The position numbers and the translations under genes are program-made. From the NCBI GenBank assembly GCA_963663225.1, contig OY760142.1, forward strand, positions 2,208,001 to 2,272,000: a stretch of 64,000 nt of DNA, written 5' to 3'. Shown in pieces: positions 54,212-61,034 of this stretch. This DNA is from Nitrospirota bacterium (GTDB lineage Bacteria; Nitrospirota; UBA9217). Positions within the stretch are counted from its first letter, which is position 1. Every line of letters begins with the position of its first letter. The notes below the pieces were generated by a model. That model saw only the letters and a program-made list of their open reading frames with translations. It was not told the origin of the DNA and searched no databases.

Positions 54212-56770
54212 TCAGGACGCCACCCTTGATGCTTTACGGAGTTTTATTATCTCAAACCATACTATGCTTACAATTCCGGCGGAGAAGCAGAGCGCGAGGT
54301 CTATTCCATGCAGCGTATTGAACTGGAAGAGTGTGTGCATGAACGGGGTGTAGAGCACAATGCCCAGAAACAGAACCGCTCCGCCCAGGACCATCCAAAG
54401 CGCGGGATTGGGATACCGGAATGTCCTGAGGATGCTGCGGGTCCATGATCTGTTTGTCAGGATCAGTCCGAGATTCGCTATGATGAGCGTCGTAAAGCAG
54501 AGGGTCCTCGCTTCAGATTCACCTTGATTGCGATACAGCGCTGTAACATATACCAGGAAAACAACGAGCAGTACAGCGGCCCCTTGCAGCAGACTGAACG
54601 CAATCATGCTGTGGCCGAAGAGCGGAACCCCGAGACTGCGGGGCGGACGCTTCATGATGTCCGACTCCTCCGTCTCCGCTTCGAATACGATTGAGCAGGC
54701 CGGATCGATGATCAATTCAAGAAATACGATATGCACCGGCAGCAGCACCAGCGGCCAGTGGAGCAGTACCGGCAGCAGCGACATCCCGGCTATCGGTACG
54801 TGGACGGCAAAAATATACACCATGGCTTTTTTGAGATTGTCGAATATCCTTCTGCCCATTCTGACAGCCTGAACGATCGACGTGAAATCGTCATCCAGCA
54901 GCACGATTGCCGAAGCCTCGCGGGCAACGTCCGTCCCCCGTCCACCCATCGCGATTCCGATATGGGCCGCCTTGAGCGCCGCCGCGTCATTCACGCCGTC
55001 GCCGGTCATGGCCACGACCTCGCCGTTTGCCTTCAATGCGTTGACGATGAACAGCTTCTGTTCAGGAGCAACTCTCGCAAAAATATCAACGTTGCCGATC
55101 TTTTGCCGGAGCTCCGCCGCGCTCATCTTCTCAATTTCTGGACCCGTGATGACCTCGGCGCGGTTCTTCAGCCCGACTTCCGCGGCGATATTCTGTGCCG
55201 TGACCGGATAGTCTCCGGTTATCATCACGACTCGTATCCCGGCCTCGGAGCACTCCTTGACGGCCTCCGTCACACCCGGCCGGACAGGATCCGCCAGACC
55301 TATCAGCCCCATGAAATCAAAAACAAAGTCATGCTGCCCAGCCGGAAGCGAACCTTTTGAGAAAACAGACCGTGCTATACCGATGACCCTGAGCCCTTCG
55401 ACCGCCATTGTGTCGATGGCGCGGGTAATCTGCTCTTTCAGGGTTTCGTCCAGATGACAGATGTCGGCAATGGCTTCGGGAGACCCCTTTGCGGCAATAA
55501 TGAAGTCCTTGCTGTCAGGTGATTTCCAGACGCGGGACATGGCCAGCAGTTCTGGGGAGAGGGGATATTCCTCCACCAGGACCCAATCGTCGTGAAGATG
55601 GCCGGTATCGGCAAGCGTCCTGTTTCCGAGTTCACGCAGGGCCATTTCCATCGGGTCGAACGGAGCCGCCTGGCTCGCGAGAATACTGAATTCGACGAGC
55701 TCATGGATATTTTCATTGATTGTTTCGGCATCGTACGCCAGATCATAGAACGTGTTTCCAGAAAATACTTTTTTTACGGACATCCGGTTCAGCGTAAGCG
55801 TGCCGGTTTTATCAACACAGAGAACAGTTGCGGAACCGAGCGTTTCCACCGCCGGAACACGCCGCGTCAGAACTCTTTTTTGCGATATCCGCCACGCGCC
55901 GAGAGCAAGGAAAATGGTCAGTACTACCGGAAACTCCTCCGGAAGCATTGCCATGGCGAGGGTTATTCCGGCAAGCAGCCCGTTCAACCAGTTGCCGCGT
56001 GTGAGACCGTAGGCGACAACAACAAGAACAAAAAGTGCCAGTCCGATGAGCGCAAGATTCCGGACCAGCTTCGCGGTTTCTTTCTGCAGACGCGTCCGCT
56101 CGTGCACGATGGTGTTGAGAGACGTGCCTATTTTTCCTATCTCCGTGTCCTCGCCGATCGCTTTGCTTTCCGCGACGCCGAAGCCCTGCACAACCAGTGT
56201 TCCGGAAAATACGCACGGCAGGCAATCACCGCCCGGGCGGGACATTGCAGTAGAGCTTTCCGCGGGTGTTTTTCTTACCGGGATTGATTCGCCGGTAAGC
56301 AATGACTCATCCACGAAGAGATTGACGCAGGAAAGAACGATTGCGTCGGCAGGCACGCGGTCTCCCTCTGCCAGAACGATGATATCGCCCCGCACCACGT
56401 CACGGCCCGGTATCCGTTTCGGGGCTCCGTCTCTGATGACGAGGGCACGGGGGCTTGCGAGGTCCCGCAATGCCTCAAGAGCGCGCTCGGTCTTGCGTTC
56501 CTGATACAGTGTTATGCCTATGACCAGAAACACGAAGCAGAGCAGCAGAAGAGCTTCGACAACATCCCCGAGTAGCAGGTAAATGCCGCCCCCGGAAATC
56601 AGAAGCAAAAACATGGGTTCCTTTATGACCTCGAAGGCTATTGTGGCGGTGCTTTTCTGTTTGGACGCAGGAAGCTCGTTATGCCCGTCTCTGGCAAGTC
56701 TTATCCCGGCTTCCGTCTCGGAAAGCCCCGGAAAGTTCTGAATATTTGTAGCTGTTTTTATCATCAGCAC
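54212..56770 (-). CDS. Cation-translocating P-type ATPase (type II-like)
   Basis: LTGES, PEEFP, DKTGTLT, KGSPE, TGDGVNDA, DDDFTSIV. Confidence 0.93.
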   Translation of the reverse strand: MLMIKTATNIQNFPGLSETEAGIRLARDGHNELPASKQKSTATIAFEVIKEPMFLLLISGGGIYLLLGDVVEALLLLCFVFLVIGITLYQERKTERALEALRDLASPRALVIRDGAPKRIPGRDVVRGDIIVLAEGDRVPADAIVLSCVNLFVDESLLTGESIPVRKTPAESSTAMSRPGGDCLPCVFSGTLVVQGFGVAESKAIGEDTEIGKIGTSLNTIVHERTRLQKETAKLVRNLALIGLALFVLVVVAYGLTRGNWLNGLLAGITLAMAMLPEEFPVVLTIFLALGAWRISQKRVLTRRVPAVETLGSATVLCVDKTGTLTLNRMSVKKVFSGNTFYDLAYDAETINENIHELVEFSILASQAAPFDPMEMALRELGNRTLADTGHLHDDWVLVEEYPLSPELLAMSRVWKSPDSKDFIIAAKGSPEAIADICHLDETLKEQITRAIDTMAVEGLRVIGIARSVFSKGSLPAGQHDFVFDFMGLIGLADPVRPGVTEAVKECSEAGIRVVMITGDYPVTAQNIAAEVGLKNRAEVITGPEIEKMSAAELRQKIGNVDIFARVAPEQKLFIVNALKANGEVVAMTGDGVNDAAALKAAHIGIAMGGRGTDVAREASAIVLLDDDFTSIVQAVRMGRRIFDNLKKAMVYIFAVHVPIAGMSLLPVLLHWPLVLLPVHIVFLELIIDPACSIVFEAETEESDIMKRPPRSLGVPLFGHSMIAFSLLQGAAVLLVVFLVYVTALYRNQGESEARTLCFTTLIIANLGLILTNRSWTRSILRTFRYPNPALWMVLGGAVLFLGIVLYTPFMHTLFQFNTLHGIDLALCFSAGIVSIVWFEIIKLRKASRVAS

Positions 56771-57063
56771 CTTAAATCTATAAAACCATAATCTTGACTT
56801 TTATTATTATTGTATCAAACCTGCGACGGGATGTGGATACTGATGAATCTGCACTGAAGCCGATCAAGTTGGCTGGTATTAGCTTAATGTCTTATCGGTA
56901 GTATGTATATTATTATATATTCTTTAAAATATAATTTTCTTCCTGTTGTCGACACTTGGAACGATTGATCCTAGTATACAATTATGAAGTAGCATAGGTG
57001 GATGGAGAAGAGGTGTAAAAAAAATATCGCAGGCACCGTCGTGGGTGTTTTATTAACCGTCGG

Positions 57064-57127
57064 GCTGCAGTATCAATCCTTCAGCTCTGCAGCATCGCAT
57101 GCGACTTGTCGCCATTGATTCTGCAGC
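57064..57127. repeat. Inverted repeat (13/14 nt arms) enclosing a small hairpin
   Basis: GCTGCAGTATCAAT...ATTGATTCTGCAGC with internal GCGAC-TT-GTCGC. Confidence 0.55.
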
Positions 57128-57192
57128 TGCGTTTCTCTGTAAAGGCTTCTCAATTCTGCTTGAAATATGCACAGATGATACGCAGAATGCTC

Positions 57193-57239
57193 TTGACAAA
57201 AAGGCCTTCTCGCTTTATCATATTAGTAATAACTCATAT
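57193..57239 (+). promoter_or_regulatory. Sigma-70 promoter with overlapping ArsR/SmtB-type operator palindrome
   Basis: TTGACA(57193)-N17-TATCAT(57216); ATATTAGT-AATA-ACTCATAT (57220-57239). Confidence 0.7.
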
Positions 57240-57241
57240 AA

Positions 57242-57601
57242 GTGAAGGCTAATGTTATGACATCTAAAATAGAAAAACTGGCAAAAATATTCAAAGTGCT
57301 AGGCGACCCGAACCGACTCACTATCGTTATGTCGATCGGCAAAAGCTCTCGATCGGTGACCGAAATCATTAATACTACAGACTTGTCTCAAACCTTGGTA
57401 TCCTTTCACTTGAAAGCGCTCCGAAATGCCTCAATAGTCAAAACAGACCGCAGTGGGCCATTTATTTATTACAGCCTCACAGAGCCGTCACTCATGGATA
57501 TTCTGGGTGAACTCACGCGCACGGTTTCTTCCATAGATTTAATAGGATCGAAGATACAGGTGGCAACCAACGGGCGGGGCTCTGACAGGAGAAGGAGGTA
57601 A
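57242..57601 (+). CDS. ArsR/SmtB family transcriptional repressor
   Basis: FKVLGDPNRLTI, SVTEI, LSQTLVSFHLKALR, GPFIYYSL; start may be ATG 57257. Confidence 0.9.
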   Translation: MKANVMTSKIEKLAKIFKVLGDPNRLTIVMSIGKSSRSVTEIINTTDLSQTLVSFHLKALRNASIVKTDRSGPFIYYSLTEPSLMDILGELTRTVSSIDLIGSKIQVATNGRGSDRRRR

Positions 57602-57603
57602 CT

Positions 57604-57849
57604 ATGTGGTGGAACGGACCGGGTCCAGGATGGGGGCCGATGTACGGCTGGTGGATCATGCCGATATTCGGGATTATTTTCCTGCTGATCATTCTTTTCA
57701 TCGTCAGCCGTTTTTTCGGCAGCGGGAACGGCTTCTGCGGCAAGCGAGAACGGCGGGATGATGACGGCATACTTGAACTGAAAAAAGAGATACAGGAACT
57801 TAAGGAAGAAATCAGGGAATTAAAGAACGCACAGGGCGGAGGCAAATAA
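57604..57849 (+). CDS. Small single-TM protein with G/W/P-rich N-terminus and coiled-coil C-terminus
   Basis: MWWNGPGPGWGPMYGWW, TM helix, ELKKEIQELKEEIRELK; RBS AAGGAGG. Confidence 0.75.
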   Translation: MWWNGPGPGWGPMYGWWIMPIFGIIFLLIILFIVSRFFGSGNGFCGKRERRDDDGILELKKEIQELKEEIRELKNAQGGGK

Positions 57850-58329
57850 ATGGAAAAGGATAAAATCGGCGACATGTTGTCGCAGGTAAGCCCCGTTCAC
57901 AAAAAAGAAATACTCAATAACCTTATTGCCACCCTACTTAAAGACCTGAACGAAACTGATAAAAAAGAAGTATTTCAAGCGATTCTGACAGGAAGAAAAA
58001 ATTCAGGTCAAGTCATCGATATGGTTGAGCGCTGAATACAGGAATGCACGGATTCCGGCGTGAATCCTGTGGAGATGAGTAAAGAGGTTATTTCGGCCAT
58101 CAGCCATTCTTATGAACTTGCCACCTATTCTACACCTGAGCTACGGGGGCTTTTCAACGACTGGTTAGGAGAAATCGAACGAGAAATCATAGAATTTCTT
58201 TCGGAGAAAGATACGGTAGATCCAGACGAGGTTTCAAAGCATTTCAGGCTTGAACGCGAAAGTGCCATATTTATATTAAGCAGGCTAGCCCGTGAGGGCA
58301 AAATCAACCTTCAGGCATCGGGTACCTGA
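57850..58329 (+). CDS. Putative selenoprotein of unknown function (159 aa; UGA 58033-58035, UxxxC), helical with winged-helix-like C-terminus
   Basis: ORFs 57850-58035 and 58060-58329 are in the same frame, joined as MVER-U-IQECTDSGVNPVEM; hairpin at 58038-58070. Confidence 0.68.
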
Positions 58330-58355
58330 TGCACAGATCCGAGATAGAAGGGAGC

Positions 58356-58619
58356 ATGGACAATAAAATACTGAATACTGGAGCTATTACATCAGCGCTG
58401 GCCTATACGTTTTGCTGACAACTTGTTACAGTCCTAGCCGGTTTTGGGTTGGGAGGCTTCACCCCGGCAGTTTGGATAGATAAATACCGTTGGCTGTTTC
58501 TGGCGGTAGCGGTTGTGCTCCTTGCATTCGCCTTTTACCGGGCGTACAGGGACCGCGAAAAGACAAGCCCATGGGGATCAGGCTTTTGTAAGGAGCTTCT
58601 ATTCTCTGCCTTGTCCTGA
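58356..58619 (+). CDS. MerT-like membrane transporter, putative selenoprotein (CU motif, UGA 58416-58418); C-terminus possibly degenerate
   Basis: RBS GGGAG; MDNKILNTGAITSALAYTFC-U-QLVTVLAGFGLGGFTPAVWIDKYRWLFLAVAVVLLAFAFYRAYR; hairpin at 58432-58454. Confidence 0.72.
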
Positions 58620-58657
58620 TATTTTATTCCCTGCTGTAGAAGACAAAGGAGTTTACC

Positions 58658-60082
58658 ATGACAGACGATCTTAAAAAGAAAAGCGGCGGTGCTTCCTGCT
58701 GACCCCCCGATACTGATGCCGGTCGGCAGCAGAGCACTTGTACAAATGACGTAGAGCAGAAGCAGTCTAATACCGAGCACTGCATGGTTTGTGGCTCATC
58801 CCTGGAATACCTTGACCAGACAAGGCATATAACATGTTCATATTGCGGAAAGATCGAGGGCGGCCATATCATGTGCCCCAACGGTCACTATATCTGCGAC
58901 CATTGCCACAACCGGGGCGCAATGGAGATTATTCAAGATATTTCGCATATGTCAAACTCTAAAGACCCATTTGAGATTGCGGAATTGATGATGAGCTATC
59001 CAGGGCTTCCCATGCTCGGGTGCCAGCATGCCTACATCGCGAGCGGTGCGCTCATGGCCGCGATAAAAAATGAGGGTTCGCGGAGCATCACAAACAACGA
59101 TATGGATGAGGTCTTCAAACGCACCGAGAAACAAGCTCATGGCGGGTACTGCGGTCTTTCAGGCGTATGCGGCATCGCTCCAGCCATTGGGGCTTGCTTT
59201 TCAGTTCTTACCGGCTCAAAATGCGGCACCACCCAAGAGCAGCAGATCACCATGGAGGCTGTAACGCGTGTATCACGCGTTATCACCGACCTTACCGGCC
59301 CAAGCTGCTGCAAAGCATATGTGCGGGGTGCCCTGGAGGTTTCGGTATCGCTTTTGAAGGATAGTTTAAATATCATCCTGCCTTCGCCTAAAGAGAAAGC
59401 GACCTGCACTTACTCAAGCAAACATCCCCATGGCTGCCGAGAAGGACAGTGTCCGTATTTTGCTGTAACTGTAGAACCCACAAGAGCAGCCTTGAACATG
59501 AGTAAAGTACCTGTCTCACTAATCATAAGAAAAGTGGCTTCAACAGATAGCAAGATGAAAGAGTTATTAAAACGAGCTTTGGAGTTAGGCGCGGATAATG
59601 CAAAAATAATCTCCACTGATTCGGTTGTGGTAGAGGAGTGGGCCCGGTGGAAGTGCCAGTACGGATGCGCACTCTATGAAAAGGATGGCTGCCATCCACC
59701 CAATGCTCCTGATGCTGAAAGTACGAAGAAACTTATGAGAGAATACAGCACGGCCGTGCTCCTTAAGGGATCCAAGGGAAAAGCACTCACAGAAATTGCA
59801 GTTCGGCTTGAAGGAGAAGCTTACCATCAGGGCTACTATAAGGCATTTGCTTTAACGGCGCTTTCAAGCGGCGGCGGAAGCGGATCGACCTGACCCTCCG
59901 GCGATAAAGAGACTCCGGGTGAGTCTCAAAATATGGAACAGCAAAACATGAGAATCCGGCCTCTTATGGAAGCCTGCGGCATTGATGTTTTTAAGACAGC
60001 AAGAAACAACGGTTTTGAAATAGACACTAAAAAAGAAACATACGGTGGTTGGAATTACTTTGCACTTATTTTGGTGGAATAA
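58658..60082 (+). CDS. Cys-rich DUF5714-like + DUF2284-like fusion, putative selenoprotein with two Sec (UGA 58700-58702 and 59891-59893), 474 aa
   Basis: RBS AAGGAG; SGGASC-U-PP leads in frame into ORF 58784; after the second UGA the frame continues with RPLMEACGIDVFKTARNNGF..NYFALILVE*; hairpins follow both UGAs. Confidence 0.82.
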
Positions 60083-60388
60083 ATGAAGATTGAATGTTAC
60101 CTATCACAAGGTTGCTCTTCTCTTGAAGAGCTAAAAGCAAATATCGAACAGGCGCTTAACATGTCCGGTATTAAAGCGGAGATGTATTATTATCAAATAG
60201 GCGATGAAGAAGCCGCCGAATTAAAACTGGCCGGTTCTCCAACGGTCTTGATAGACGGCAAAGACATTGCCCCGGGTGCAGCGCCGGGATTTTCCTGAAG
60301 AACATACCGTGACGAGTCTGGCAGGCTCGGCAATGTTCCTACGGTTGAAATGCTTTTAAAAGCACTTCTTGTTAGCAAAAAGCAATGA
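60083..60388 (+). CDS. Thioredoxin-fold (DUF2703-like) putative selenoprotein, 101 aa (UGA 60296-60298)
   Basis: MKIECYLSQGC..GSPTVLIDGKD..PGFS-U-RTYRDESGRLGNVPTVEML; the family has an SCRxY motif at this position; hairpin at 60313-60329. Confidence 0.82.
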
Positions 60389-61034
60389 AGTGAGCAGCGA
60401 ATCTCGGTGTCCCATAACTGCTTTATAGTAGAGCAGAGACATCATAAGTTGATCGGCATCAGCAAGGCCCAAGACGTAGTTTGTACATGATACAAATCGT
60501 ATTTAATGATACTTGCGCGTGATCAAAATTGCGGAAAAGCAGGTGAAGTCCGTATCGCATCTTTTTGAATTACAGTGTATTATACGCAGTTTGTAAATAA
60601 GCTACAAGCTGAGTAACTGATTCGTGAAGCGAGTAATGGTTGAAAATTGCAACAAGCAAGCCGGCGACAAGGCAGCCTCCTGCGACCAATCCGAGAAATC
60701 GCGCAATCATCAGCATCATTTGAACATACAGTACCATCATACTAGTGTCCTCCTTGCCGGTCGAATATGCGTTTTTTGTTGTTGACCGGTGTGTGCTCCA
60801 GCATTTGTTATTTCACTGTTGATTAAAACATACGTCCTTTGGTCTTCTTTGTAAATGTGGAAGATACTGATGATGTCTCAGGTAAATCCGAAAGCTGTCC
60901 AAAAAAAATTTTATTGGGATCAGAAATGAGGATTGAGCAATGGAAATAGACTACAATGTAACGCGGGAGGAGGGCCTCATGTATTTTCGTTAGAATGAGG
61001 ACCGTGAGGGATGCGTGAAAATCGGGCATTCTCA

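Follow-up and report, generated by a model that had tools for sequence, protein, structure and literature searches.

In a 64,000-nucleotide stretch of DNA from a Nitrospirota bacterium (the window: contig OY760142.1 of assembly GCA_963663225.1, positions 2,208,001 to 2,272,000, with coordinates below counted from its first letter), the frame at 57850-58329 is almost certainly one gene, as judged from its own sequence and those of its relatives, in which the TGA at 58033-58035 is read as selenocysteine (Sec). It is very likely that UGA62 of this single gene is decoded by the host Sec system with the help of a hairpin, and that the product is an acidic, all-helical protein of 18 kDa belonging to a sister clade within the TsoA superfamily. 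The explanation that we find best as a whole, which joins this Sec gene to a proposed role as sensing partner of a neighbouring ArsR regulator, comes close to an even chance of being right. The features of the gene are as follows.

57850-58329, forward strand: TsoA-like selenoprotein gene, 159 codons and a stop (read-through translation; NF045695 match; kept in 36 genome loci).
58033-58035, forward strand: UGA codon for the predicted Sec, U62 (TGA in 35/35 clade loci and 80/80 TsoA loci).
58045-58047, forward strand: codon of Cys66, partner in the U-x-x-x-C motif (invariant in 21/21 clade rows and 19/19 TsoA rows of the alignment).
58050-58067, forward strand: conserved SECIS-like hairpin, with arms at 58050-58055 and 58062-58067 and a loop at 58056-58061 (RNAalifold).
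58147-58326, forward strand: predicted winged-helix domain, about residues 100-159 (AF2 pLDDT above 94; VIA-align).

The initial annotation had described two small ORFs that share a frame and are separated by TGA plus eight sense codons (IQECTDSG), and the ORF list confirmed this layout: ORF1 (57850-58035, 61 aa) has GGAGG 8 nt ahead of its ATG and is terminated by the TGA at 58033-58035, and ORF2 (58060-58329, 89 aa) has a GTG start. Inspection by eye agreed that this GTG has no evident ribosome-binding site, an AGGAGG-like stretch being absent from the 5-10 nt before it. Read-through translation gives a protein of 159 aa with a pI of 4.9 and a computed mass of 18.0 kDa with Cys replacing Sec, in line with the product of about 18 kDa that had been anticipated, and places U62 four residues from the sole Cys, C66, in the motif R-U-I-Q-E-C, again as described. 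The selenoprotein call itself is supported by the conserved TGA, coding constraint, the hairpin and the Sec machinery of the genome, all of which point to a probable Sec codon.

A scan of one genome per species recovered 36 homologous loci, 35 of which reach the junction. As labelled, 17 of the loci belong to Nitrospirota, 17 to Desulfobulbaceae or other Desulfobacterota/'Deltaproteobacteria', and one each to Deferribacteres and Anaerolineales, the Anaerolineales-labelled locus being identical to one of the Desulfobulbaceae loci. Junction-spanning homologues with TGA or Cys aligned had been proposed as a check on the initial reading, and TGA does occupy one column in all 35 of these clade loci, as well as the homologous column in all 80 metagenomic TsoA loci, with no Cys version found. 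Nor is the stop ever TAA or TAG in these 115 loci, which is the pattern that had been put forward as the sign of two separate genes. Following the TGA, the clade loci encode [I/L]-x-[E/A]-C-x-D-S-G-V-[N/S]-P. Change between loci is concentrated at third codon positions: for positions 1, 2 and 3, the pairwise values are 0.42, 0.29 and 0.63 upstream of the TGA, 0.28, 0.16 and 0.57 downstream, and 0.09, 0.05 and 0.41 in the eight codons that would be 'intergenic'. No stop interrupts any of the 29 upstream blocks. With so little change in these eight codons, the stretch that a two-gene reading takes as non-coding is the most conserved peptide of the protein.

Database entries mirror the interruption. 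A protein search returned 173 matches, and among the 120 listed, 117 are proteins of 88-104 aa that cover only the C-terminal 51-58% of the query; these C-terminal halves are the product of gene callers halting at UGA. Full-length entries among the same 120 (P0004, P0005 and P0006) have W at the U column, as does the TsoA protein P0181, and we read this as TGA called under translation table 4. Cys is absent from the Sec column among the 120 matches listed of 173, among 150 relatives listed of 371 from a profile search of 1.84 billion representatives, and in the 115 loci; with no Cys-for-Sec homologue, the classical argument from Cys/Sec pairs fails for this family. Fragments of 61 aa that correspond to the N-terminal part (P0229, P0242 and P0245) also occur among the relatives listed.

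The genome, a single contig of 3.26 Mb, was searched for the Sec machinery and encodes SelB (375.9 bits; cut-off 242), SelA (597.1 bits; cut-off 268) and SelD (372.2 bits; cut-off 125), the selD gene itself carrying an in-frame TGA, together with a tRNA-Sec with anticodon tca that was detected by both Rfam and ARAGORN. Beside selD there is a second Rfam match to tRNA-Sec (locus L046, G000:C1:522308-522451, minus strand, 144 nt, 48.9 bits), in which ARAGORN finds no tRNA. We also considered that TGA might be read as Trp through an alternative code, and rejected this because TGA also terminates the same gene and its neighbours, and because a complete Sec machinery is encoded in the genome.

The region downstream of the TGA contains a conserved SECIS-like hairpin. 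Across 33 distinct sequences, RNAalifold recovered one helix of six pairs (GGAUUC/GAAUCC) with the loop NGGNGU and a consensus energy of -7.59; in the window this is GGAUUC-N6-GAAUCC, which starts 17 nt past the U of the UGA and has its loop starting 20 nt after the UGA. The stem has 6 bp, extended to 8 bp in two loci (L003 and L015), and shows a compensatory GAC/AGU change in L035 and U-G pairs in L003 and L004. Third codon positions within the stem are fixed despite changes of residue (ACG, TCG, GCG and CTG all end in G, 30/30; GAT 29/30; GTG 30/30; AAT or AGT with final T, 30/30), and those of the loop (TCN, GGN) and of the flanks vary freely. The initial annotation had drawn a hairpin with an ACAGGA/TCCTGT lower stem; this lower stem does occur within a minimum-energy fold (-19.8 kcal/mol, z -2.5), but it is not kept in relatives, in which the conserved register is that of 58050-58067. 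The covariation analysis that had been suggested for the hairpin came out in favour of the 58050-58067 stem, with one compensatory and two G-U changes, and not of the register as drawn. Taken alone in the window, the bare 6-bp stem reaches only -6.9 kcal/mol, or -10.4 with its extension, and the minimum-energy fold at -15.0 is another hairpin than the conserved stem. A permissive Rfam scan of 57000-60600 gave no SECIS family and only three chance-level matches. The bacterial SECIS constraints set out in a 2026 review (PMC13188914) agree with the hairpin in loop size, loop G-G, stem length, spacing and energy.

The initial annotation did not recognise the protein as a member of a described selenoprotein family, and this view has to be abandoned: along its whole length it is homologous to TsoA (NF045695, 'LULAXC motif selenoprotein TsoA'), which was described in 2025, and because the TsoA family is already catalogued it does not represent a new selenoprotein family. 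A table of the same 2026 review credits TsoA to Haft & Tolstoy 2025 (mSystems 10:e0141724). The window protein scores 99.7 bits on NF045695 (E 1.8e-28), with residues 8-150 aligned collinearly and over the full length to positions 3-144 of the 144 in the model; this is below the equivalog cut-off of 170 bits, as is its 93.2 bits in the genome search, in which it is the sole match. P0181, a true TsoA, reaches 201.7 bits and shares 33% identity with the window protein across 126 residues. By alignment and phylogeny, the window protein is thus placed in a separate sister clade beside canonical TsoA within the TsoA superfamily. In a quick maximum-likelihood tree of 62 rows (21 of the window clade, 21 of TsoA and 20 of Met-rich relatives described below), SH-aLRT values were 97, 100 and 90 for the three groups, respectively, with 90 at the branch that unites the two Sec clades. 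The window clade is caught by no curated model at cut-off, and both its motif and its partners are particular to it; nothing in Pfam matches the window protein above cut-off.

Common to the two Sec clades are the Sec column itself and a Cys four residues beyond it, a similarly placed hairpin whose loop is of the AGGUG type, a winged helix at the C-terminus, a gene position after an ArsR that is TsoR or resembles it, and the lack of any known Cys variant. They differ in stem sequence, which in TsoA is GGGCGA/UCG(A)CCC, and in the motif around Sec, which is [H/Y/R/E]-U-[I/L]-x-[E/A]-C-x-DSGV[N/S]P in the window clade and L-U-L-A-x-C-MGEGVDP in TsoA, where the 80 loci read L-V-H-L-U-L-A-E-C-M-G-E-G-V-D-P. 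Of the L-U-L-A-x-C signature, the window protein therefore keeps the U-x3-C spacing but not the flanking L, L and A. At position 77, all 21 of 21 clade rows have Ser, whereas Cys occurs there in 19/19 TsoA rows and in 18/19 rows of the Met-rich relatives. The partners also differ: MbdU, a MerT-like selenoprotein and a small membrane protein accompany the window clade, and TsoB and TsoC accompany canonical TsoA. In the window operon TsoB and TsoC are absent, and MerT-like, MbdU and DF-family genes occur instead.

More distant are Met-rich relatives without Sec (such as P0128, P0135 and P0153), found among the 150 listed of 371, which score 41-72 bits on the TsoA model. They share length and architecture with the window protein, along with P73, M76, F102 and W105 and a TPELR-LF-W helix followed by the winged helix, but they have neither Sec nor Cys at the U and C66 columns, contain runs of Met and a P-x-x-M-C motif, and are encoded by single uninterrupted ORFs across both halves. 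In one locus (L062, 1150-1776, genome G028), such a relative has, going by ORF translations, two OsmC-like ORFs on one side and a CcdA/DsbD-like membrane ORF on the other; it is followed by a small membrane protein that carries a SHOCT-like tail and is similar to the 81-aa protein of the window. FeoC-like and other small winged helices share the fold of the C-terminal 50-60 residues, with weak sequence matches below the Pfam cut-offs (FeoC, PF09012, 13.6 bits against a threshold of 21; DUF2582, PF10771, 12.2 against 24.2), but these domains have no counterpart of the N-terminal Sec-bearing part.

Structure prediction was consistent with a helical protein that is not thioredoxin-like, as had been proposed. 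We built two AF2 models, from 21 and from 59 sequences; the first was poor (pLDDT 62.7), and the second, with a mean of 75.5, was better only at the ends, with residues 96-155 above 94, helices 15-47 near 79 and residues 48-95 at 51-59. U62 and C66 fall in one predicted helix (residues 53-69), as the initial annotation had envisaged, though this helix lies inside the low-pLDDT region 48-95 and has a pLDDT of about 55. The C-terminal winged helix-turn-helix that it had also suggested is supported by fold comparison of the model, as a three-helix bundle with a wing: residues 100-159 match 4kmf_A with a VIA-align Z of 9.0 and an rmsd of 1.1 A over 55 residues. Z values to solved winged helices, 4kmf_A among them, include 9.0, 9.0 and 8.5 at rmsd 1.1-2.1 A; many regulators match as well, and the SelB winged helix reaches Z 8.1; since these matches are effectively tied, nothing beyond the fold follows from them. 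With the first model, Foldseek found no PDB structure at an E of 0.001 or below and listed just local winged-helix matches, and a profile search of PDB sequences gave a best E of 0.02, to winged helices only, with no solved relative by sequence. The net charge of the winged-helix domain is about -1, and because the domain is not basic this may speak against direct DNA binding, though only as a hint.

The gene lies third in a set of six co-directional genes, four of which together contain five UGA codons.

57193-57221, forward strand: promoter-like site TTGACA-17-TATCAT ahead of the operon (consensus scan, 11/12 matches; a pattern match only).
57242-57601, forward strand: TsoR-like regulator of ArsR/SmtB type without any Cys (NF033788, 75.6 bits; cut-off 55).
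57604-57849, forward strand: small membrane protein of 81 aa with a coiled C-terminal tail (ORF list).
58356-58619, forward strand: MerT-like membrane selenoprotein with a C-U dipeptide (F-C-U), U21 at 58416-58418 (translation).
58658-60082, forward strand: MbdU, metal-binding double selenoprotein, U15 (S-C-U) and U412 (NF045648, 750.4 bits; cut-off 600).
60083-60388, forward strand: DF-family thioredoxin-like selenoprotein, U72 at 60296-60298 (NF049942, 63.7 bits; cut-off 70).

The TsoA-like gene thus follows the ArsR and membrane-protein genes and precedes those of the MerT-like protein, MbdU and the DF-family protein. On the TsoR model itself (NF045707, cut-off 115), the ArsR scores 83.2 bits, compared with 152-158 bits for canonical TsoR, and an alignment of 27 homologues has no conserved Cys column. 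The stop of the 81-aa membrane protein, which matches no family above cut-off, abuts the TsoA-like start. The MerT-like protein is a predicted two-helix membrane protein with an in-frame TGA directly after a Cys, and its scores are all below cut-off (Pfam MerT 25.7 bits; NCBIfam MerT models 28-34.4 bits). MbdU attains its 750.4 bits only with an N-terminal extension and the read-through tail, the table-11 ORF at 58784-59893 alone scoring 592.8, below 600. The DF-family gene starts on the base after the MbdU stop, and its product scores 27.9 bits on Pfam Thioredoxin_3.

Across the 36 loci, ArsR is found upstream in 28, and in the remaining eight the DNA on the upstream side is shorter than 1 kb; MbdU occurs in 26, a MerT-like gene in 14 and a homologue of the 81-aa membrane protein in 15. 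In L003 (2811-3725), an ArsM-type selenoprotein (NF041537, 299 bits, below cut-off) and a rhodanese replace MbdU, and an FGE/EgtB-like gene is found downstream in L009. ArsM-type cargo after the TsoR-like/TsoA-like pair was observed in some Nitrospirota loci. In Desulfobulbaceae loci L020 (about 1516-1900), L021, L025 and L030, an extra Met-rich ORF with MMxxMM-type repeats lies between the membrane-protein and TsoA-like genes. Canonical loci are arranged as TsoR-TsoA-(x)-TsoB-TsoC, or as TsoR-TsoA with DsrE/TusC-like genes. In a sample of 401 genomes of the phylum, the clade was found in five genomes including that of the window, all five with a full MbdU adjoining, and MbdU scored above cut-off in seven genomes; one of these (G385) has no TsoA-like, ArsR or MerT-like gene within 3 kb upstream of MbdU.

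The TsoR/TsoA module is therefore not tied to the 'three selenoprotein operon', as it also heads operons of MbdU and of ArsM-type selenoproteins. This changing cargo would point to a shared regulatory or ligand-handling role, in proteins in which Sec is apparently never swapped for Cys. Public gene calls split the TsoA-like gene at the UGA, with the halves named, where they are named, 'hypothetical' or 'winged helix-turn-helix domain-containing', and TsoA, the one curated model to pick the gene up, scores it well below its cut-off; as a result, the clade is missing from counts of the selenoproteomes of Nitrospirota and Desulfobacterota.

We tentatively propose, at somewhat less than an even chance, that the protein is a selenol/thiol ligand-binding partner of the Cys-less ArsR with a sensing or co-regulatory role. 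The U62/C66 pair would bind a soft ligand, which could be a metal(loid), for example Hg or As, or else a reactive sulfur or selenium species, and the protein would act as the sensing partner of the upstream TsoR-type repressor; together the two would switch on the downstream MerT-like, MbdU and DF-family selenoprotein genes, with the winged helix used for protein contact rather than DNA contact. The initial annotation had raised a metal sensor or co-regulator of the operon, and such a role appears plausible in view of an adjacent ArsR without conserved Cys and of the conservation of the ArsR/TsoA-like pair. A complex prediction for two ArsR copies with the table-11 C-terminal half of the TsoA-like protein gave a score of 0.00 and a mark of 0.32.

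The same residues might instead serve transport, with the U-x3-C motif taking a metal(loid) or a selenium or sulfur species from the MerT-like protein and handing it to MbdU or other cytoplasmic selenoproteins, and the winged helix docking; we regard a carrier or chaperone of this kind as rather unlikely. Such a function would suit a gene that sits among a membrane protein, a MerT-like C-U protein and the metal-binding MbdU, as well as the adjoining MbdU in all five clade genomes of the phylum sample, a winged-helix charge unlike that of typical DNA binders, and Sec-free relatives whose Met-rich composition with P-x-x-M-C is typical of soft-metal binding. The invariant neighbour is nevertheless ArsR, with the MerT-like gene in only 14/36 loci and MbdU missing from 10/36, and the cargo of canonical TsoA, TsoB and TsoC, is quite different. 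Given that the ArsR/TsoA pair is invariant in both Sec clades while the cargo varies, sensing is favoured over a pure carrier. The neighbours of canonical TsoA, namely TsoB (a rhodanese/DsbD fusion) and DsrE/TusC-like genes, along with the OsmC-like and CcdA-like ORF translations that flank the Met-rich relative in L062, would agree with yet another chemistry, in which U62 and C66 cycle between selenol/thiol and selenenylsulfide in an electron or persulfide relay with partners of the DsbD or rhodanese type. We consider this redox function improbable: the operon of the window clade has neither rhodanese nor DsbD, the predicted fold is not thioredoxin-like, and an i/i+4 pair within one helix is an unusual redox geometry.

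Two further readings turn on the UGA itself. Synthesis of the winged-helix half depends on the decoding of UGA62, so the full-length protein could report the supply of Sec-tRNA and license the four later UGA codons, with the 61-aa peptide or termination keeping the operon off. That no other selenoprotein gene precedes it in an operon where four genes hold five UGA codons, that the ArsR/TsoA(-like) pair precedes differing selenoprotein cargoes, and that Cys never replaces Sec in the 115 loci would all be in keeping with such a selenium checkpoint, which is nonetheless quite improbable, since it leaves the invariant Cys, the conserved DSGVNP stretch and the Met-rich non-Sec relatives unexplained and no recognised selenoprotein gene follows the pair in L007 and L009. 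Were the UGA a true stop, separate proteins of 61 and 89 aa would be produced, the second by re-initiation at the GTG. Gene callers annotate the locus in this way, with 117 of the 120 listed matches being C-terminal halves and 61-aa fragments existing as entries, and the GTG is invariant in 30/30 sequences; but the last base of that GTG is a stem base, no Shine-Dalgarno sequence precedes it by eye, the eight codons between TGA and GTG are the best-conserved peptide yet vary at synonymous sites, the non-Sec relatives are one polypeptide, and the stop is constant as TGA across the 115 loci. Two genes are on these grounds extremely improbable, and a single Sec-containing protein, as proposed above, is the reading that we retain.

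An extension of the sensing proposal would make the ArsR/TsoA(-like) pair a general two-part switch for selenoprotein-rich operons, consisting of an ArsR without sensing cysteines of its own and a small partner with a selenol ligand site, whose DNA- or repressor-contacting half is made only upon Sec insertion. We give this broader idea little chance of being right; if it held, one protein would integrate a chemical signal, from a soft metal(loid) or a reactive S/Se species, with the selenium supply of the cell ahead of four more UGA codons. Divergent from the operon lies a gene for an 852-aa P-type ATPase (54212-56770, minus strand), which by its sequence looks like a type-II (Ca/Mg-like) pump and not a heavy-metal pump.
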